Below, one piece after another: positions 5,029 through 41,439 of a DNA stretch of 41,439 nucleotides; within the stretch, counting starts at the first letter, position 1, and every line of letters begins with the position of its first letter. The stretch is from a virus. The notes beneath the pieces were generated by a model, which saw only the letters and a program-made list of their open reading frames with translations, had not been told where the DNA came from and did not search any database. The position numbers and the translations under genes are program-made. Where the stretch lies: IMG/VR virus record IMGVR_UViG_3300037313_000557, positions 1-41,439 of that record; one strand, given 5' to 3'.

Positions 5029-5274
5029 CTATTCGACCTGCTCTAGTCCGCACAGGTGGCAGCGGCGCTCAGCCTTGATGTGTACGACAGAGTCCCGGAC
5101 CATGCCGTCAGTTACAGGGATGGCGCTGAATGGGATATCCGGACGCAGCGCCGTTCGGTGCCACGGCGACCAGTCATGGCCGATAACGTCGCAGCTACCG
5201 GGCGCGTTGCGGATGTTATCCGCCAGACCGTTGAGCAGCGTTAGATAGAGATGGCGTCGGTCAGCATCTTCCAT
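5029..5274 (-). CDS. hypothetical protein (accessory arm)
   Basis: 81-aa ORF preceded by a 252-bp non-coding gap that contains AAGGAG and also a TTGCGT-N17-TAAGGT-N6-ATG arrangement. Confidence 0.5.
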   Translation of the reverse strand: MEDADRRHLYLTLLNGLADNIRNAPGSCDVIGHDWSPWHRTALRPDIPFSAIPVTDGMVRDSVVHIKAERRCHLCGLEQVE

Positions 5275-5526
5275 CCCCGAACCTTACTCCTTTCCTCTAC
5301 CGAACGCAACTTGACGGGGAGGGGTGTGCGTGGTACGCAGGAACCCGCTGCGGCGATGTGGTCAAGACACATTCCGATGGTTGTTCCCGCGCTCTGGTGA
5401 CTCGTCCGGGGTTTCCGCCAGAGAAAGTAGCCAATGCCTGTAAGCGCAGGCCGAAACGGGTTGCCAGTTCTGATCTGGCCCGCAGCTATTTCATTGTTGG
5501 ATTCGCGCCGGCAAACAGCCCGCTGC

Positions 5527-5832
5527 CTACCGTCTCACCAAGTCCAGCAACGTCTGTGATATACCGTGCTGCCCTCTATCATCCCAATATCTGGCAGCAG
5601 AACCGGCAGCATCCTCAAGCGCGGCGGCTTCCGTTAGACCCTTCCCGAGCCATTGGGGTTGAGCCCCGTCACCGTCACGTCGTCCGGCATGAACGACAGC
5701 CTCCCAAGCGCCATCTTTCGGATAGGTCCGCCACTGCATCTTGAGATCGCGGCGCCGGCATATACCCACCAAGGGGCCAAGGATCGTATCGAAGTCTAGC
5801 ATGGCATCTAGTGACGCCTGATTCCCCAACAT
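5527..5832 (-). CDS. hypothetical protein
   Basis: 101-aa ORF with plausible composition. The start is uncertain; there is an internal Met at MLDFDT. Confidence 0.45.
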   Translation of the reverse strand: MLGNQASLDAMLDFDTILGPLVGICRRRDLKMQWRTYPKDGAWEAVVHAGRRDGDGAQPQWLGKGLTEAAALEDAAGSAARYWDDRGQHGISQTLLDLVRR

Positions 5833-5914
5833 TTCAAGCGGCGGTACAATCTCTCCACCCCATACCCCACCATCCCTATACCTATTAGACCGATTAGGAT
5901 TTGAGCGGGGAGCA

Positions 5915-6094
5915 TTAGGCTTCCAGTTGCCGGCCGATACCGTTCATGGCCAGCACAATAGCTGCTACCAATAGCAGCAGCTTGGCCGCGCCAGAGAGCG
6001 GGTTCGCGAGCGCCACGTAGGCCACTCCGGCAGCCATAGCCCATAAGATCAGCGTGCCGATCCACAAACCCAGCGAAAACGGCCTAAGGCTCAT
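5915..6094 (-). CDS. small two-TM membrane protein (59 aa)
   Basis: Hand translation gives MSLRPFSLGLWIGTLILWAMAAGVAYVALANPLSGAAKLLLLVAAIVLAMNGIGRQLEA. It is just under the ORF-track length cutoff and is preferred over the Arg/Gly-rich alternative frame 5808..6065. Confidence 0.5.
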   Translation of the reverse strand: MSLRPFSLGLWIGTLILWAMAAGVAYVALANPLSGAAKLLLLVAAIVLAMNGIGRQLEA

Positions 6095-6124
6095 GCGGCC
6101 TTCTCGTCATTGGGTGGGGACATT

Positions 6125-6307
6125 CTAGATGGTCGCGCGAGCAATCGCGACCCACGATTCCAGCATCCCGACGACGGTTTGGTCATCGATCTGCTCAAGC
6201 TCGTTGCCGATGCCGCGCCGATCGCGAATATCCTCCGCGATGCCCGCAATCGTGCGCTCGATACTGTCGCCCGCCTGCAACTCCGCGAGCTTCTCCCAAT
6301 AGTCCAT
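6125..6307 (-). CDS. hypothetical acidic helical protein
   Basis: 60-aa ORF (MDYWEKLAELQAGDSIERTIAGIAEDIRD...) with realistic composition, unlike the overlapping 6091..6378 frame. Confidence 0.5.
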   Translation of the reverse strand: MDYWEKLAELQAGDSIERTIAGIAEDIRDRRGIGNELEQIDDQTVVGMLESWVAIARATI

Positions 6308-6326
6308 CCCTCAATCCCTTCGTGTT

Positions 6327-6542
6327 TCAGCCAGAGGTGGAAAGCTCGACCTCTACCGGGTTGAGCTGATCCCGCCACCAGTCGGCTGCCAGCCCCTGCT
6401 CTTCATAGCCTCCCTCGATCATCGTGCGTGCCATATCTAGCGCCTTGTTGCGCCATTCGATCTCGCGCTTTAGACGCCGCTCTAACCCCGCTGCATAGCT
6501 GCTTGGCTCAAACGGCGGGTTGCCTCGCTTATTCGGGTCCAT
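6327..6542 (-). CDS. hypothetical protein
   Basis: 71-aa ORF with realistic composition (RLKREIEWRNKALDMARTMIEGGYEE). Confidence 0.55.
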   Translation of the reverse strand: MDPNKRGNPPFEPSSYAAGLERRLKREIEWRNKALDMARTMIEGGYEEQGLAADWWRDQLNPVEVELSTSG

Positions 6543-6623
6543 GGCCCACCTCCAGCATCATCCCTTCTCTACCGATAGCATGGGGACCTACCCTCTCGCG
6601 CTCGTCTGTCGTGGTCATGGGCA

Positions 6624-6896
6624 TCAATCCGCCCCCGAGCAGCAAGGGCCGATCCAGCTCTTCCCTGTGCCAAGCGGCGGCTCGACGCCATCCCAGCTCA
6701 TCCACGATCTGTGCCACGGACCCGAGTCGCATGCCGAGCAATGCCGATAGTTATGTGGTCGCGCCTTCACGTCTGCAATCAGCAACGCGCGATCCCACTT
6801 GGTCCGCACGACCTCTGGTGGCCTAGCGCCTCGACGGATTTCCACGTCGGCGAATATTGAGCGGATGGTTCCGACCAAGCCTAGCTCACTCCCCAT
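6624..6896 (-). CDS. hypothetical protein (frame uncertain in its 3' half)
   Basis: The ATG overlaps the end of the upstream gene. The first ~50 aa look protein-like, but the second half is Trp/Cys-rich and competes with frame 6529..6741. Confidence 0.3.
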   Translation of the reverse strand: MGSELGLVGTIRSIFADVEIRRGARPPEVVRTKWDRALLIADVKARPHNYRHCSACDSGPWHRSWMSWDGVEPPLGTGKSWIGPCCSGAD

Positions 6897-7857
6897 CGCT
6901 ACCCTCCGCTGGCTGGAGTGCGGCTGGGTCGATCCCGGGACGCATGCGAGTATCGGTGCCGGAGATCGCGGCGTGCCAGTTAGCGAGTGCGGCTGCGGTG
7001 CTGATCGTGTGATGCAGGGCCTTGTTCGTGTCGCCGGCGATTTGCGCGGTCGCGGCTTTTTGCGCGAGATAGCCGATGAGCCAAAACCAATCGAGCGGCG
7101 CTTTGCCTGCATCATGCTCTGCGCCCCAACGATCGCGCTGGTGAGCAGCCTCTAGCGGGACGCCGGCCATGAAGTCAGCAGTCTCTGGGGAATTGATGAC
7201 CTCGTCGCGGATAGCCTCCCTCATCCGCGCCGCGTCGGTGGAGGGGGATGCAGACCCCTCCCCACTGGTAGGGGCGTTGAGGGCGGCGAGAGCCTCTTTG
7301 GCCTTGACGCTGCACACAAACAGAGCGGTGCTAGCAAAACGCGCCTGGGGGTCCCACTTGTCATAAGCTTCCGCGATCTCAGTCAGAGTCGCCCTCACGC
7401 TTTCCACCTCCCCCACCGGCTGTACGCGTTCCGGCGGAGGGGCTGCGGAGATCATGGCGCGCCAAATGTCCTCAGCATCGCACCGCTCAGCGGCAATAAC
7501 CATCTCCAGCGTCGGCTCCCTCGGCACCACCACCATCCCTTCCCCAAGGCGGGGGTTGATCATGGCCAAAGCCACATCGGCGAGCGCCAGCCAATATTCT
7601 TGGACCTCGGGCGAGCTATCGAAGAACGCGGGCGCCTCGGTTTCGCCGGCTATCGTGCGTGGCTCGACAGCATCGCACAACTCGTCGGCAAGCTCGAACC
7701 GCGTAACGGCCTGGCGGGGGTCGGAGCGCTCTAGGGCGTCGGAAATGGTGCGCTTGACGCTAGCAATGCGCGCCTGGCGTTCGTCCCCGTCCAGATCGTT
7801 GAAAGGCGGCTCCATTTGCAGAGCGCACCGGATGGCGTGTTCGAAGGCCTCAGTCAT
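6886..7857 (-). CDS. hypothetical 323-aa protein; C-terminal helical domain possibly related to MazG-like/dNTP pyrophosphohydrolase folds
   Basis: Start chosen at MTEAFEH, which overlaps the upstream stop. The C-terminal pattern HQRDRWG..H..GK..DW...GYLA.KA....GD..KALHH....AAALANWH loosely recalls all-alpha NTP-pyrophosphohydrolase-like phage proteins. Confidence 0.4.
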   Translation of the reverse strand: MTEAFEHAIRCALQMEPPFNDLDGDERQARIASVKRTISDALERSDPRQAVTRFELADELCDAVEPRTIAGETEAPAFFDSSPEVQEYWLALADVALAMINPRLGEGMVVVPREPTLEMVIAAERCDAEDIWRAMISAAPPPERVQPVGEVESVRATLTEIAEAYDKWDPQARFASTALFVCSVKAKEALAALNAPTSGEGSASPSTDAARMREAIRDEVINSPETADFMAGVPLEAAHQRDRWGAEHDAGKAPLDWFWLIGYLAQKAATAQIAGDTNKALHHTISTAAALANWHAAISGTDTRMRPGIDPAALQPAEGSDGE

Positions 7858-8248
7858 TGTTCGCTCCTGGGATGAGGGCAGAGAGGTTGCGGGCAGCGTC
7901 CAACCCACAAGTGCAGGGAGGTGCGCCCAATGCCCAACTGCGTTGATAGATCGCGCATCCGACGCTGTGCGAGGTGAACGGGAGTAGTGCGGCATGTCCC
8001 CGTTCGATCCCCGCGCGCTCACCGGCTGCGAAGGCGGAGAGACGTTGGCGGGCCATTCCCTGGACCCACGGATGGTGGTCGCGATTGCCCGACAGAATAT
8101 CCGCTTCGATTGCTGGCATTAGCGTATGACAGGAGACGACAGCCTCCCGATCGTCCTGCGTCACGCGCAGCCCCGCTTCGTTAGTTGGCATGGTGGGGTC
8201 GGCGCGTTCCACCTCGGTTACTGTCACCGGTAAAGGGCTATCGGTCAT
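7850..8248 (-). CDS. hypothetical protein with QxDR(E/D)A-type domain (paralogous segment in 15818..16474)
   Basis: Start at MTDSPLPV, immediately after repeat copy 1. The segment VTQDDREAVV...ILSGNRDHHPWVQGMARQRL parallels IQADRDAAADW...DLPIAFAKHRI in the other gene. Confidence 0.5.
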   Translation of the reverse strand: MTDSPLPVTVTEVERADPTMPTNEAGLRVTQDDREAVVSCHTLMPAIEADILSGNRDHHPWVQGMARQRLSAFAAGERAGIERGHAALLPFTSHSVGCAIYQRSWALGAPPCTCGLDAARNLSALIPGANND

Positions 8249-9050
8249 TGAGGGTGTCCTGATTGGGGTTGGGCGATGCCTGACGGCCCGCGCTGTCGTG
8301 AACGGAGCCGCAAGCGTCTCCGCCCTTCGGGCTTCCATCGCTATCGCGCCATGCCACCTCGGCCCAAAACCGGGTGCTGAAATGGCCAGTTTTCCTATGG
8401 CACCGATCGCACTCGCAGTAGACATACCGGCCTCTTGGCCCATTGCCTTTCCATGCATCGACGTTACCGCCGCATCGGCAGATTAGATTCTCGCGCGAGG
8501 GATGGTCGCCGGATGGCGGAGACGCGTCGGCGGCATAGGTTCGCCGTTCAACGATATGGCTGATCGTTGTCAGATCCGTTCCGAGCAGATCAGCGATCCC
8601 CCTCCGCGAAATTCCAGCCGCCGCTATGTCGCGAATGATTGCGACCTGCCGATCGGTGAATTTGCTTTTGCAGGATTCAGCGCCGGCACGGTTGGTGCCG
8701 TGTGAAAACTTGTGAGCGGCGTTCTCTTTCGCTGAACACCACTTCAGGTTGTCGACGCGGTTGTTTAGCGGATCGCCATCCAAATGGGCGCCCTGGGCGT
8801 TCGCTGGGCGCGGGCCCGAGAATGCCTCAAGTACGAGCGAATGAACGGAAACAAACCGCCTTTTGTGTCCTACATGGAGACCGACCGTGCGATAACCCCT
8901 CCGCAGCCAGGGGATGAGGACTTGCAGGGTTCGGGCATTTCTAACCCGCCCGATAGACGATACCTCATAGGCACCTTCGTGCCGTGGGACTGCTCGCCAA
9001 CTTTCATCGGTTGGCCCCAGGTCACGCTCACCCACGCGCGCCTCCCTCAT
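8238..9050 (-). CDS. HNH homing-type endonuclease (NUMOD4-like N-terminus, HNH, HTH) fused to a Lar-like zinc-ribbon segment
   Basis: WRAVPRHEGAYEVSSIGRVRN is NUMOD4-like, HLDGDPLNNRVDNLKW is an HNH motif, and ISRRGIADLLGTDLTTISHIV is an HTH. The C-terminal CRCGG-x17-CECDRCH...AEVAWRD matches the Lar restriction-alleviation pattern. The last ~30 codons read through repeat copy 1. Confidence 0.65.
   Translation of the reverse strand: MREARVGERDLGPTDESWRAVPRHEGAYEVSSIGRVRNARTLQVLIPWLRRGYRTVGLHVGHKRRFVSVHSLVLEAFSGPRPANAQGAHLDGDPLNNRVDNLKWCSAKENAAHKFSHGTNRAGAESCKSKFTDRQVAIIRDIAAAGISRRGIADLLGTDLTTISHIVERRTYAADASPPSGDHPSRENLICRCGGNVDAWKGNGPRGRYVYCECDRCHRKTGHFSTRFWAEVAWRDSDGSPKGGDACGSVHDSAGRQASPNPNQDTLNDR
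8249..8335 (-). repeat. structured intercistronic repeat, copy 1
   Basis: The minus-strand core CCCGAAGGGCGGAGACGCTTGCGGCTCCGTTCACGA...CGCCCAAC ends at the ATG of the 7850..8248 gene. Confidence 0.7.
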
Positions 9051-9252
9051 TCGAGGGGTTGGGGAGAGGGCGTCCGTAGTTTGGCGGGTAGCGATCGAGA
9101 ATGGGACGGGCGATGGCAGCCCCGCGCTCCGCGAAGTCGCCTATTGCCTTGGCGCGATCGACGGCGCGGTCATTGAGATATGCCGCGTGCATCTGCTCGA
9201 TCACGCTATGAAGCTGCGAAATGGCCGCAACGAGCCTCTTGCGCTCGCTCAT
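9028..9252 (-). CDS. hypothetical helical protein
   Basis: 74-aa ORF whose ATG lies immediately after repeat copy 2. It overlaps the HNH gene start by 23 nt. Confidence 0.5.
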   Translation of the reverse strand: MSERKRLVAAISQLHSVIEQMHAAYLNDRAVDRAKAIGDFAERGAAIARPILDRYPPNYGRPLPNPSNEGGARG

Positions 9253-9393
9253 TCACACCCTCCCGCATTCAGGGTGTCTGGAATAGGGCTACTGAGGTTG
9301 GGCGTCTCGGCTTCGCCGACCGCGTCACTCGGCAGAGCCGGAGCCGCATGCGCGTCTCCGCCCTTCGGGCGAGTACCGCATGACGCGATCACG
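9253..9393 (-). repeat. structured intercistronic repeat, copy 2
   Basis: Minus strand reads GCGTGATCGCGTCA...CTCGCCCGAAGGGCGGAGACGCGCATGCGGCTCC...GACGCCCAACC...ATG. It spans from the upstream stop codon to the downstream start codon. Confidence 0.75.
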
Positions 9394-9613
9394 CGACGAA
9401 CGCCGGCTGGCCATCGCGGGGCAGCCACGAAATGCCAACCCAGCCGCGCTCCGGCCGATGCGTGACGCCAGCCTTGTCAACGACCCGATGAGTCGTCCCG
9501 CGATCGTCGGTGATGACGTGGAGCCCGGCGGGCTCGGCGATGGTGAACGTGGCGCCGTTCGCAAAGGTGTAGGTGCGCGAAGCTTCTGACGAGATATCGA
9601 TTGCGTTGTTCAT
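9389..9613 (-). CDS. hypothetical protein
   Basis: 74 aa starting at MNNAIDISS, with ATGA overlap to the upstream gene. Its stop TGA lies inside the conserved start of repeat copy 2. Confidence 0.5.
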   Translation of the reverse strand: MNNAIDISSEASRTYTFANGATFTIAEPAGLHVITDDRGTTHRVVDKAGVTHRPERGWVGISWLPRDGQPAFVA

Positions 9614-10095
9614 GCTGCATTCCTTTCGAGGATGATCAGTTTGTTCCACTTCGTGACCCCGCAGCGCCGCCATCCGGCACGCAGAAAACAGAACCCCGGA
9701 TTGCTTGAGCCGATGGCGCGGGGATTGACGTAGGTGTAATGGCGCTCGCCCGGCCAGCGGGCATCCGCAACGGCGTCGGCCTCCGTGATCAGCCACGAAG
9801 AAAGGCCAGCACCCTCATTCCGAAAAATGGCGCAGTTGACGCCTTGCTGCCCATCGCCGCTGATGAACTTGCGCCATACGAACAAAGCGCGCCGACAGGC
9901 TGTTACGAGAACGAGCTTCTCACCGGGGCCGACAAACAGTTTCGGCTCGCGCCCATCCGCATAACGCTTTCGGCTATAGTGTCTGTCGAAGAACTCACGC
10001 GCTTCGTCGTCACCATCCTTGATGGCCCGCCACACAGGAGGGCAAAAAAGGTGCCCTTGCCGTTCAGGCCATGAAACAGATGCAGCGACGGTCAC
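9610..10095 (-). CDS. hypothetical 161-aa protein; possible acyltransferase-like (GNAT/Mom-like?) fold
   Basis: GTG start; this is the first gene downstream of the attP candidate. The pattern HYS...G.NCAIFRNEG..LSS.LI.EA...A...W...R.YTYV.P..I.S.NPG.CF..AGW looks like a conserved enzyme family, but I cannot name it with certainty. Confidence 0.35.
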   Translation of the reverse strand: MTVAASVSWPERQGHLFCPPVWRAIKDGDDEAREFFDRHYSRKRYADGREPKLFVGPGEKLVLVTACRRALFVWRKFISGDGQQGVNCAIFRNEGAGLSSWLITEADAVADARWPGERHYTYVNPRAIGSSNPGFCFLRAGWRRCGVTKWNKLIILERNAA

Positions 10096-10208
10096 TGTGC
10101 CGACTCCTGTGCCCGGATGTTCTTCGCGAACAGGCGGGGAACGCGGTTGCTTCGGCTAGGACTTCTGCGGGTTTGGGAGATTTCTGCGGTGTTGCGGTGT
10201 TCTCTGCT

Positions 10209-10253
10209 AGCGGTTTTCAAGACCGCTGCAATCGACCGCTCTGCCACCTCTCC
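10209..10253 (-). other. tRNA-Ser(UGA) 5' fragment (acceptor 5' strand, D arm, anticodon arm); candidate attP core
   Basis: Minus strand reads GGAGAGG-TG-GCAG-AGCGGTCGA-TTGC-A-GCGGT-CTTGAAA-ACCGC. The D-loop GG and the U33/UGA/A37 loop are canonical. No variable arm, T arm or 3' acceptor follows. Confidence 0.7.
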
Positions 10254-10281
10254 AAACTCTCGGATTTCCGCCGTGAAACGG

Positions 10282-10309
10282 ACTATAGCACATCCAGAAA
10301 CCGCTGCAA
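10282..10309 (-). promoter_or_regulatory. near-consensus sigma70-type promoter TTGCAG-N16-TATAGT, pointing into the tRNA fragment
   Basis: -35 at 10309-10304 and -10 at 10287-10282, read on the minus strand. It lies between the int stop (10331) and the tRNA 5' end (10253). Confidence 0.5.
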
Positions 10310-10330
10310 GTGTGCCGTCGTTTGTGCCGT

Positions 10331-11356
10331 CTACTTTTTGACCGCTTCCGCATTCTCCGGCGTGAGATACGCCAGATATTCCTCCGTCTGCCCGATCGTG
10401 CTGTGCCCCAATAGCTGTTGCAGCGTGTAGATCGACCCACCGTTTTCCAGATAGCGGATGGCGTACTCGTGGCGCAGATCGTGGAAGCGCATGTGCAGTA
10501 ATCGCCGCCCTTCGCGCTGTACCATCTTTTGTGCCCGGTGCCTGATCTCCCGCCACATCTCCGTCACCCGCTTGTACGGGCCGCCGTTGCGCGTCACGAA
10601 CAGATAACCGCACCGATGCTCGGGTTGCCGGTTGACGATCGCCAGGGCCTCGCCAGTGAGCGGCACGACCCGGAAGCGGTGCTTGGTCATCCATAGCTGC
10701 ATCTTGCCCCCACGGGCATCCACAGCCTTCAGGGTGGCCAGTTCGTCCATCCTGGCGCCCGTAAGCAGGGCCAGCCGGCACAAGTCGCCGAATGTTCCGT
10801 GCATCCGGGCAAAGTACGCCTCTATATCCTCCGCTGGTGGACGGATATAGGTGTTGCGCTTTTCCCGACGCGGCTTCTTTGGCAGCAATGAAACTGGGTT
10901 GATCTCCGGCCAGCCGTCCAGTTCTTTCACATGGTCGGCTATTCCCGACACAACGGAGAGGTAGCGGTTGATCGTCGCGGTTCCAGAGCCGGCAGCGCGC
11001 CGAGTCTCGATGAAGCTTTGCAGCGCAACCTTGTCCACCTGATCCCAGAAGTGTTCGCCGAAATAGGCGTCCAGTACGGTGAGCAGCTTGGCATAACCCC
11101 GAAGCGTTTTCGGCTTCCATTCGCCAGCTTCCAGCCACAGCGCCGCTGCTTCCCGAAAGGTATGCCGGATCGTGCCGTGATAGGGTGATCGACCTTTCAG
11201 CCATTGCTCAAGGCGCCTTTCAGCTTCCGCTCGATCGCGAGTTTTAAGGGATTGTCGAAACTCCCGCCCGTTGACGGTGACACGCGCATAGAAAACGCCG
11301 CCTCGTGCGTAGAGGCGATCCGGTTCTCGTTTGCTGCTTCGTTTGCGCGCACCCAT
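10331..11356 (-). CDS. int: tyrosine integrase
   Basis: 341 aa with an N-terminal arm-type domain (LYARGGVFYARVTVNGREFRQSL). The C-terminal catalytic signature is HDLRHEYA...LLGHSTIGQTEEY. Confidence 0.9.
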   Translation of the reverse strand: MGARKRSSKREPDRLYARGGVFYARVTVNGREFRQSLKTRDRAEAERRLEQWLKGRSPYHGTIRHTFREAAALWLEAGEWKPKTLRGYAKLLTVLDAYFGEHFWDQVDKVALQSFIETRRAAGSGTATINRYLSVVSGIADHVKELDGWPEINPVSLLPKKPRREKRNTYIRPPAEDIEAYFARMHGTFGDLCRLALLTGARMDELATLKAVDARGGKMQLWMTKHRFRVVPLTGEALAIVNRQPEHRCGYLFVTRNGGPYKRVTEMWREIRHRAQKMVQREGRRLLHMRFHDLRHEYAIRYLENGGSIYTLQQLLGHSTIGQTEEYLAYLTPENAEAVKK

Positions 11357-11508
11357 GCCCGGAGCCTCATCCTATCAAATGACCAGCACCCACCTAGCTT
11401 GGCGGCGCTCCAAATTTCTCCCCTTGCTGCAAGACTCTGCAAGGTGCGTTCGGTCAACCCCGTAATGAGGCGCGCCTCCTTCACGTTGCAGCGCTCGGCC
11501 TGGGTCAT
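11197..11508 (-). CDS. xis: excisionase / AlpA-type HTH DNA-binding protein
   Basis: VKEARLITGLTERTLQSLAARGEIWSAAKLGGCWSFDRMRLRAWV matches the MerR-like excisionase fold pattern. The ORF tail overlaps int by 160 nt. Confidence 0.65.
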   Translation of the reverse strand: MTQAERCNVKEARLITGLTERTLQSLAARGEIWSAAKLGGCWSFDRMRLRAWVRANEAANENRIASTHEAAFSMRVSPSTGGSFDNPLKLAIERKLKGALSNG

Positions 11509-11702
11509 CCCTGAATGCCTTCCGGCTCATCGGGCATAGGAGCCCAAGCCTTGGGTGAGCAGGGCCATGCACCCGGCGCCGACTGCCAGCCGAACGTGTT
11601 GTTGTAACGACCCGTCACGATCTTGTAGCGGGCCTTCGGGCCGTTCCAGAGCATGACAGTTGTTCCGTCCTTCGGGGCGGAGATCATCGTTCGCCAGTTC
11701 AT
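11505..11702 (-). CDS. hypothetical protein (DUF551-like pattern)
   Basis: 65 aa. WRTMISAPKDGTTVMLW resembles a common small phage protein motif. ATGA overlaps on both sides. Confidence 0.5.
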   Translation of the reverse strand: MNWRTMISAPKDGTTVMLWNGPKARYKIVTGRYNNTFGWQSAPGAWPCSPKAWAPMPDEPEGIQG

Positions 11703-40715: not shown

Positions 40716-41439
40716 ATGAGCGTCGTTGACATCACTTTTCCAGGCAACATTTCCCAAGTGGCGACGGCGGCTCTGTTGCGGACTGTGCCGTCAGCCTTCA
40801 TCAAAGGCGACGATCTGTATTACGTGCCCGAGGTGAAGGCCATCTTTGGCTGGGATGGCTCGTCACTGGCGAACGATGACGGCACCACGGTTCTGCGTCC
40901 AAACGACATTACGCCGCTTCAGATGGGGCGGTGGGTGCTCGCCATCGGTAAAGGATCGCCGGCAACAAACGCGCTGCAAGTCTCCACCGATGACGATTTT
41001 GTCGGCGCCTTTTACACGACAGTACAGGGGCTCGCGGATCGTACCAGAATCAGGCTAGCCGCAGACCTGCACATTTACGTGCGAACGGATGGAAGCGATA
41101 GCAATACTGGCCTTGCCGATAGCGCGGCCGGGTCAAAGCTGACCTGGCAAGCGGCGTTCGACCTCGCCGCGTCGTTCGATTTGAACGGTTTCAACATTAT
41201 TGTCGCGGCCGGTGCACAGAGCGGCGTGAGAACGTGGAACTTCAGCGAGATACAAGTAAGGCAGTTGGTGGGGAAAGGCCGCCTCTATGTAAGGGGCAAT
41301 GGCGATAACACCGTGTTGAATGCCAGCGGACAGTGCTTTTCTCTCTACGACACTCTCGCGCCAATCTACTTCGGAAGTGTAAAGCTTATCAGCGGCGGCG
41401 GATATGGCACGATTGTTGTCAATGGCGCGTCGTCTATCG
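40716..41439 (+). CDS. tailspike/tail fibre protein 1, 5' part (continues at 128..918 across the circular join; about 504 aa in total)
   Basis: ATG at 40716, with no stop before the window end. The N-terminus MSVVDITFPGNISQVATAALLRTVPSAFIKGDDLYYVP is paralogous to the N-terminus of the 938..3097 protein. The motif VRTDGSDSNTGL resembles the start of right-handed beta-helix (pectate-lyase-fold) depolymerases. Confidence 0.75.
   Translation, partial: MSVVDITFPGNISQVATAALLRTVPSAFIKGDDLYYVPEVKAIFGWDGSSLANDDGTTVLRPNDITPLQMGRWVLAIGKGSPATNALQVSTDDDFVGAFYTTVQGLADRTRIRLAADLHIYVRTDGSDSNTGLADSAAGSKLTWQAAFDLAASFDLNGFNIIVAAGAQSGVRTWNFSEIQVRQLVGKGRLYVRGNGDNTVLNASGQCFSLYDTLAPIYFGSVKLISGGGYGTIVVNGASSI
41313..41439. 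repeat. terminal direct repeat, copy 2 (identical to 1..127)
   Basis: Same comparison as copy 1. A length of 127 nt matches a commonly used maximum assembler k-mer. Confidence 0.9.

Follow-up and report, generated by a model that had tools for sequence, protein, structure and literature searches.

Positions 10328 to 10096 (minus strand) of IMG/VR virus record IMGVR_UViG_3300037313_000557 have the features of a phage attachment site (attP) that carries the 5' half of a transfer RNA gene, tRNA-Ser(UGA). We refer to the whole stretch of DNA analysed, 41,439 nucleotides (nt), as the window. With a probability of about 0.88, this region is the attP of a complete, circular, ∼41.3-kb temperate Sphingomonadales phage that would rebuild a host tRNA gene on integration and place it behind a phage promoter. 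In the proposed mechanism, the integrase (Int) would recombine the half tRNA, at its anticodon stem-loop, with the identical 20 bp of the host tRNA-Ser(UGA), presumably exchanging strands across the 7-nt loop. Because the phage carries the 5' part of the gene and not the usual 3' part, integration would cut the host gene in two, leaving its promoter and 5' half on one side and the remainder on the other. Next to int, the host 3' half would join the phage 5' half to give an intact tRNA-Ser, behind phage DNA with a conserved sigma-70-type promoter, TTGCAG-N16-TGC-TATAGT, that most likely drives the tRNA in lysogens. At the far end of the prophage, the promoter and 5' half of the host, now orphaned, would face a block of phage genes without assigned function.

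The tRNA-derived block lies on the minus strand at 10253..10209 (GGAGAGGTGGCAGAGCGGTCGATTGCAGCGGTCTTGAAAACCGCT) and is single-copy in the window. It comprises the acceptor 5' strand GGAGAGG, U8-G9, a class-II D arm (GCA-GAGCGGTCGAT-TGC), A26, and an anticodon arm (GCGGT-CTTGAAA-ACCGC) with anticodon TGA at 10219-10217. The sequence that follows begins with TAGCAGAGAACACC and lacks the variable arm, the T arm, and the 3' acceptor strand. A preliminary description, made from the letters of the window, had recognized a 45-nt tRNA-Ser(UGA) 5' half lacking these three parts, and the sequence, the Rfam alignment, and ARAGORN agree with that identification. Its extent is one nucleotide shorter: the T at 10209 belongs to the phage arm, and because lysogen tRNAs have a C after 10210, the tRNA-derived part is 44 nt (10210-10253, canonical positions 1-43). 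Position 1 is 77 nt past the int stop codon on the same strand, close to the 80 nt estimated earlier. The block ends exactly at the 3' edge of the anticodon stem. A conventional tRNA-targeting attP would hold a fragment running from the crossover to the 3' end of the gene, whereas the fragment here is tRNA positions 1-43.

Searches with tRNA models gave the result expected of half a gene. The Rfam tRNA model (RF00005) fits the 5' part only, through the anticodon arm (5' 48 model positions; 23.1 bits versus a gathering score of 29), and ARAGORN calls no tRNA at the block. Across the whole window, no Rfam family reaches its gathering score and no full cloverleaf tRNA is supported, in line with the earlier expectation that a tRNA finder would return no full tRNA. 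The block is beyond chance expectation; in 100 dinucleotide-preserving shuffles, there were no matches to it at ≤3 mismatches.

By sequence, all four forms of the site are present among relatives: attP, the two prophage junctions (attL and attR), and the empty host site (attB). Searching IMG/VR with Int identified 10 close loci (loci are labelled L001 and so on). Six loci in IMG/VR have the attP layout, in which int is followed by the half tRNA only (L002, L004, L006, L008, L009, and L010). More free-form relatives are L038, L041, L045, and L046, plus a copy in a metagenome-assembled genome (MAG) of Novosphingobium (L017). Altogether, at least 11 distinct relatives are in the free form with the block at the same int-adjacent place, and at least 10 of them are metagenomic phages.

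The two junctions of a single prophage are found on one 48,172-bp Sphingomonas contig. In L001, whose Int is 78% identical, the sequence is that of the window from int through ...GAAAACCGC and then continues with a normal variable arm, T arm, and CCA before entering unrelated DNA. The outcome is a complete tRNA-Ser(tga) 80 nt past int on the same strand (7104-7193), in the order expected of attR: int, phage promoter, 5' half identical to that of the window, and host 3' half. A pattern spanning the core and phage arm located attL at the other end of the contig (L014/L042, 885-928). Here, unrelated upstream DNA with the host promoter is followed by a slightly different tRNA-Ser 5' half, that of the host, and by a phage P' arm ∼94% identical to window 10209-10092. 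In blastn comparisons of the window with both ends of the contig, breakpoints are exactly at 10210 and 10253 and the sequences are otherwise collinear; on this alignment, the L001/L014 prophage is the genome of the window opened inside the half tRNA.

Other lysogens and empty sites have the corresponding structures. Two isolate genomes have attR alone, those of Sphingomonas baiyangensis L-1-4 w-11 (L015; NZ_SWKR01000002.1, with int and the tRNA inside 387147-408187; complete tRNA-Ser(tga) at 11122-11211 of the locus) and Rhizorhabdus histidinilytica UM2 (L016; NZ_FUYM01000001.1; 11078-11167 of the locus), again in the order int, promoter, and tRNA, and int is uninterrupted at attR in L001, L015, and L016. 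A second host-side junction (attL) is in L044. Prophage junctions inside the block are thereby represented in four independent contigs, two from cultured strains. Three empty sites (attB; L048-L050) have an intact tRNA-Ser(tga), no prophage, and the same left flank as attL. The gene to the left of attL encodes a Sphingomonas lytic transglycosylase, and a 96%-identical homologue directly precedes tRNA-Ser(tga) in all three. In a search for empty sites through the right-flank host amidase gene (L001 7410-9053), the closest contig (L047) had no upstream tRNA-Ser. A four-way alignment resolves attL as B-O-P' and attR as P-O-B'.

The anatomy of the site, the structures of the relatives' junctions, and the restoration of the tRNA are directly supported by these sequences. 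They bear out, at natural junctions, the proposal in the preliminary description of an attP with a tRNA-Ser(UGA) 5' half, crossover in the anticodon arm, and a lysogen tRNA rebuilt just after int. Both comparisons it had suggested were informative: the block shared with tRNA-Ser(UGA) of related genomes was found at attB in L048-L050 and at lysogen junctions, and attL and attR were found together on one Sphingomonas contig, with attR in two isolate genomes besides. None of the outcomes it had named as contrary (no host tRNA-Ser gene sharing the block, prophage junctions elsewhere in the phage genome, or a remnant without recombination activity) emerged.

The window begins and ends with the same 127 bases (1-127 = 41313-41439), which indicates that it is a circularly closed assembly of a phage genome of ∼41,312 bp and not a fragment. 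Predicted products include TerL (large terminase), portal, major head protein, head-closure protein, tail proteins, and a CI-like repressor. Because it is circular and encodes a head, tail, and terminase set along with a CI-like repressor, we regard the window as the whole genome of a temperate phage, in the free (attP) form. DNA comparison with deposited phage genomes yielded no match except the tRNA-like 46 nt, the best Int protein match among those genomes is 25% identical, and no cultured relative was found among them.

The common core (O) is the 20-bp anticodon stem-loop GCAGCGGTCTTGAAAACCGC (10229..10210, minus strand). In three- and four-way alignments, it is identical in attP (window), attB (L048), attL (L014), and attR (L001). 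The left edge of the core is set by differences between the host and phage D arms, and the right edge is the 3' end of the anticodon stem; as aligned, strand exchange must occur within these 20 bp. The exact cleavage positions are predicted to be in the anticodon loop (CTTGAAA; 10215-10221, minus strand), the presumed 7-bp overlap region, between the arms of the 5-bp inverted repeat GCGGT/ACCGC. A 7-nt loop with a flanking inverted repeat is the arrangement generally taken to mark the overlap region and the core-type sites (PMC8371274). Two attP variants are altered only in the 3' strand of the anticodon stem, L006 (ACCTC, a mismatch) and L008 (ACCGT, a wobble). These fit exchange in the loop because the host would supply that strand after exchange. 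Separately, in the Novosphingobium free-form copy (L017, ∼9964-10000), tRNA identity runs 5 nt into the variable arm (ACCGC-CGTGG).

Acceptor pairing across the joint, a compensatory pair in the D stem, and the pattern of variation are signs that the phage half is functional. With the Rfam tRNA model (gathering score 29), the tRNAs rebuilt at the junctions reach 58.5-63.2 bits, and ARAGORN calls them tRNA-Ser(tga). Acceptor strands pair perfectly across the joint in all three of the three lysogens, twice as GGAGAGG/CCTCTCC and once, in the covarying case of Sphingomonas baiyangensis, as GGAGGGG/CCCCTCC. Within the subclade of the window, L001, L002, and L004, the D arm differs from that of the host at six positions, and the D stem is GCA/TGC in the phage versus GCC/GGC in the host, a compensatory change from C12:G23 to A12:T23. 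The L001 lysogen consequently carries a chimeric tRNA-Ser. Across relatives, the acceptor strand takes the forms GGAGAGG, GGAAGAG, GGATGGG, GGACAGG, GGAGGGA, GGAGGGG, and GGAAGGG, D-arm positions vary with the D stem still paired, and one or two anticodon-stem positions vary (L002, L006, and L008). Invariant across phage halves are G1-G2, U8-G9, the D-loop GG, and the anticodon loop.

Integration is predicted to leave the host tRNA promoter facing co-oriented phage genes. The first open reading frame (ORF) past attP (9610-10095, minus strand; 161 aa) has a GTG start after AGGAG, belongs to phrog_24928, which has no assigned function, and is co-oriented with the half tRNA. In a lysogen, the remaining co-oriented gene block (5029-9609, minus strand), which includes a gene for an HNH/NUMOD4 homing endonuclease (8238-9050, minus strand), would also lie behind the host promoter. 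At the lysogen attL, a same-strand phage ORF preceded by AGGAG starts ∼113 nt after the host 5' half; it is in the equivalent place and differs from the first ORF of the window (start 10095). We found no convincing intrinsic terminator between the half tRNA and the first ORF, where one weak stem without a proper T tract overlaps the ORF start. Read-through is structurally allowed because the ORFs are co-oriented and no convincing terminator intervenes, and "promoter capture", in which transcription from the host promoter would continue into phage genes, is a plausible fit to this structure. The preliminary description had called the genes from 10095 down to 5029 lysogenic-conversion genes, a label we reject because searches of the block with Pfam, PHROGs, PADLOC, and NCBIfam returned only the HNH homing endonuclease, the remaining ORFs having no assigned function, and no defence-system match. 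The gene block is poorly conserved, and around the HNH gene only short stretches match the related prophage.

Alternatively, the attP may be a 5'-half site as described, with transcripts from the host promoter terminated, degraded, or repressed at attL so that there is no regulatory consequence. We give this slightly less than an even chance. Promoters of tRNA genes are strong, and constitutive expression of phage genes, including the HNH endonuclease, could be harmful. The ∼115-nt P' arm is dense in repeats of protein-binding type that overlap the ribosome-binding site and start of the first ORF and could block transcription, and the position of the first ORF holds no conserved specific cargo, the ORF of the window being different from that of the lysogen. 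Against insulation stand the lack of an intrinsic terminator ahead of the first ORF, the weak stem having no proper T tract, and the co-orientation of the ORF and its AGGAG in both the window and the lysogen.

At the int-proximal junction, a promoter-like element (10282-10309, minus strand) consists of TTGCAG (10309-10304), N16, and TATAGT (10287-10282), with TGC of an extended -10 at 10290-10288. It matches the consensus at 3/6 positions of the -35 (versus TTGACA) and 5/6 of the -10, for a total of 8/12, with a TGn extended -10. The element described earlier as near-consensus is thus present as TTGCAG-N16-TATAGT, but at 8/12, below the threshold of our scan, "near-consensus" overstates it. 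We read the element as a promoter despite the failed scan because it is conserved in relatives. In a set of nine (the window, L001, L002, L004, L015, L038, L041, L046, plus L010, which has CATAGT), -35/TGn/TAnnnT is kept 27-28 nt from the tRNA +1 while the intervening leader diverges. The combination of fixed spacing and a diverged leader is read as selection for a tRNA promoter, and the rebuilt tRNA of lysogens is most likely transcribed from this phage promoter.

Several observations weigh against the reading of the window as a 5'-half attP with its own tRNA promoter. A consensus promoter scan of 9000-11600 at a threshold of 9/12 called no promoter. No promoter is recognizable in the distant clade L008/L009 and L017 (Int 55-56% identical), and L016 has a different promoter candidate; in these four, read-through from int is possible. 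A lysogen of exactly this phage was not found, and the junctions are those of relatives whose Int is 71-78% identical, among which the att arms of L001/L014 are nearly identical to those of the window.

An unlikely explanation is that the rebuilt tRNA of lysogens is transcribed from int or from promoters farther upstream, with TTGCAG...TATAGT retained for some other purpose, such as a role in an Int-binding P arm or as the promoter of the downstream operon in the free phage. The recombinant tRNA of pTN3-like elements is said to use the integrase promoter (PMC8371274). Retention of the half tRNA without a recognizable promoter in L008/L009/L017 is in keeping with such read-through, as is the position of the -35, which directly adjoins a conserved CGGCACA repeat. 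Expression of int is normally low in lysogens, however, while tRNA-Ser(UGA) must be produced steadily; the fixed spacing of 27-28 nt with a diverging leader is also the pattern expected of a tRNA promoter.

Beyond the proposed attP and its phage promoter, we consider as doubtful, though with more far-reaching implications, that the phage exploits a reciprocal promoter swap in which its promoter takes over the host tRNA-Ser(UGA) and the host tRNA promoter is wired to prophage genes. If true, a phage promoter of tRNA type would, in the free genome, transcribe the half tRNA together with the gene block to its left, and lysogens of the window's subclade would have a phage-type D arm, with its six substitutions, imposed on the tRNA. 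The phage would then control both supply and sequence of a host tRNA, and its accessory genes would be tied to host physiology via a growth-rate-tuned promoter. Since the acceptor strand of each phage would also need to match the host 3' half, the tRNA half would be a determinant of host range.

Repeats flank the core in both arms. The P arm has a CGGCACA direct-repeat pair (10311-10328, minus strand; copies at 10328-10323 and 10316-10311, 12 nt apart), which are candidate arm-type sites. The P' arm (10096-10209, minus strand) has two copies of CCGCAGAA (10189-10182 and 10170-10163), the palindromic GTTCGCGAAGAAC (10131-10119), and two copies of GGCACA (10113-10108 and 10101-10096). The motif (C)GGCACA is present twice per arm, 12 nt apart and in one orientation, in the window's densest cluster of the motif, and the CGGCACA columns are invariant in an alignment of eight relatives. 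Copies of TTCTGCGG on the plus strand, at 10163-10170 and 10182-10189 of the P' arm, are partly conserved and account for the two direct-repeat copies placed near 10157-10190 in the preliminary description. Sites of TTCTGCGG type comprise these two in P' and an inverted copy at the tRNA 5' end. The four (C)GGCACA copies are at least as good a candidate as TTCTGCGG for arm-type sites. Either repeat set could be the arm-type sites of Int, and the other may serve the HTH_17 protein encoded next to int or a host factor.

An inverted repeat also surrounds the core. The 14 nt ending at tRNA position 2 (window 10257-10270) and 10163-10176 form an inverted repeat with consensus TTCTGCGGGTTTGG, matching at 14/14 positions in L006, 13/14 in L038, 12/14 in L004, 11/14 in L002, and 10/14 in the window, with L041 also in the set. 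The P' segment is at a fixed offset, +48 from GGTC, and the version in L006 covaries (AATT). This inverted repeat could provide a pair of sites for protein binding, or it could form an RNA stem confined to the free phage.

The half tRNA has a weak match to an Rfam small RNA (sRNA) family, sX4 (RF02223), at window 10193-10256 (minus strand; 18.4 bits versus a gathering score of 70). The match is limited to the part of the consensus that resembles a tRNA-Ser(CGA) 5' half with a similar D arm, and the block is not a member of the family. sX4 is a Xanthomonas sRNA that was confirmed by northern blot and has its own start site (PMC3300014). Judging from this resemblance, sX4 itself may be a transcribed orphan tRNA half remaining at an att site.

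We think it improbable that the half tRNA has an additional role as an RNA in the free phage, as a structured leader or sRNA, for example in operon regulation or as a tRNA-fragment mimic. A promoter in the attP form necessarily transcribes the half tRNA, the 196-nt region 10275-10080 folds somewhat better than shuffles (z = -2.15, a mild effect), the leader and P' segments are complementary at a fixed offset with a covarying version pair, and the sX4 consensus (PMC3300014) holds a tRNA-Ser-like 5' half that weakly matches the block. Inverted DNA binding sites for one protein explain the complementarity equally well, the sX4 score is far under threshold (18.4 versus 70 bits), and att function already accounts for conservation of the block. 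That the block is an inactive remnant, host DNA from imprecise excision or a decayed tRNA gene in a phage that integrates elsewhere or never, is hardly credible: failure to find a lysogen of exactly this phage would agree with it, but at least 11 distinct relatives in attP form have the block at the same place beside int, four independent contigs have prophage junctions exactly within it, and its end coincides with the 3' edge of the anticodon stem.

The att site adjoins a gene for a tyrosine integrase (10331-11356, minus strand; 341 aa; stop codon 10333-10331; PF00589, 1.5e-18), which has SAM-like and DUF6538 domains at the N-terminus. The catalytic set R-K-H-R-H-Y is complete (R202, K225, H292, R295, H318, and Y327) and shows no variation in nine relatives. 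The nearest solved structures are integrases 5c6k/5dor and the HP1 integrase 1aih. Directly upstream of int is an ORF with an HTH_17 domain (11197-11508, minus strand; PF12728, 2.8e-6), which from its position and fold family is a candidate excisionase or directionality factor. It overlaps the int start (11356) by ∼160 nt in another frame, which is unusually long. Distant Int relatives (24-26% identity) are in MAGs of Pyrinomonadaceae/Acidobacteriota (L018-L027); in the three of these loci that were checked (L018, L022, and L027), no tRNA was detected across a stretch of ∼21 kb each.

Phage HP1 at tRNA-Leu is an example of integration at the anticodon-loop sublocation. The window shares with anticodon-loop elements an int that adjoins attP, a core formed by a 7-nt loop and a 5-bp stem inverted repeat, and restoration of the tRNA; the catalytic domain of its Int is nearest 5c6k/5dor and the HP1 integrase 1aih. 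In contrast, what anticodon-loop elements bring is the 3' part of the gene, the stretch between the crossover and the CCA end, with transcription left to the host promoter, whereas the window has the 5' part only. The anticodon-loop sublocation corresponds to the symmetric class of Williams 2002, as summarized in PMC8371274 and in 10.1101/2020.11.02.365908. According to the review PMC8371274, which cites Williams 2002, recombinant bacterial tRNA genes keep their original promoter with very few exceptions, and attB sites made of a 5' half, "seldomly encountered in bacteria", are typical of the pTN3-like integrases of archaea.

The pTN3-like integrases of Thermococcales use the 5' half of tRNA-Leu as attB (Cossu et al. 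2017, PMC5495485; PMC8371274). In both systems, attP and attB share the 5' part of a tRNA (41 bp including the anticodon in pTN3), and the rebuilt tRNA, having lost its original promoter as is characteristic of a 5'-half att site, depends on transcription from the element. The systems differ in that the pTN3 attP is inside the int ORF, integration splits int ("suicidal"), and the tRNA is said to use the int promoter. The window's attP is instead past the int stop (10331; half tRNA at 10253), outside the ORF that is disrupted in suicidal pTN3/SSV integration, so that int is not interrupted, and the half tRNA has its own promoter-like element in front. Hosts are archaeal in the former and bacterial in the latter.

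Bacterial elements that replace the 5' portion of their target have been described. Klebsiella islands at the 5' end of the arg2 tRNA use the D loop, which was called a novel sublocation (bioRxiv 10.1101/2020.11.02.365908). Like the phage of the window, these are elements of bacteria that enter on the upstream side of the tRNA gene and exchange its 5' portion for their own; their site consists of the acceptor 5' strand, D stem, and D loop, whereas the phage of the window exchanges strands in the anticodon arm and brings 43 tRNA positions with it. The element SXT, at prfC, integrates in the 5' end of a protein gene. Elements at dusA, whose integrases target the 5' end of a protein gene (PMC4482086), and at prfC resemble the window in that the 5' end of the target is replaced and the element must bring expression signals. 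In the window, however, the target is a tRNA, and the replaced part must pair with the host 3' half in one folded RNA. The Islander algorithm explicitly admits 5' fragments upstream of a tRNA gene (PMC4383910). By these accounts, 5'-half att sites are known but rare, their rarity in bacteria being taken from the citation of Williams 2002 in PMC8371274, and the bacterial clade described here is new and well supported.

Nearly all phages and islands that target tRNA genes carry the 3' part, and the standard explanation is that the host promoter stays in charge. A well-populated clade with the mirror-image arrangement, including at least 11 free-form relatives, four junction contigs, and empty sites, makes the 3'-part rule testable. 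It raises questions of what an element needs in order to supply the tRNA promoter and 5' half, how that half co-evolves with the host 3' half, and whether the displaced promoter drives prophage genes. Finders that seek only displaced 3' tRNA fragments will misplace the boundaries of such elements. Three IMG/VR prophage calls in isolate genomes (L003, L005, and L007) stop at the end of int or within ∼80 nt after it, cutting before the tRNA and excluding the junction, and boundary callers may misplace ends of other 5'-type elements in this manner.

Two candidates from the searches were set aside. The P'-arm pattern TGTTCGCGNNGAACANNNNNGCAC matched six extra loci in viral contigs (L032-L037) that have no half tRNA and look like chance matches. 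ARAGORN reported a "tRNA-???" with a four-base anticodon (aggt) at window 8501-8601 (plus strand), antisense to the HNH endonuclease ORF; given the four-base anticodon and lack of Rfam support, it is probably a false positive. Lastly, in Sphingomonas baiyangensis (L015), the rebuilt tRNA-Ser(UGA) is followed 70 nt on by a convergent tRNA-Ser(CGA) (11281-11370).

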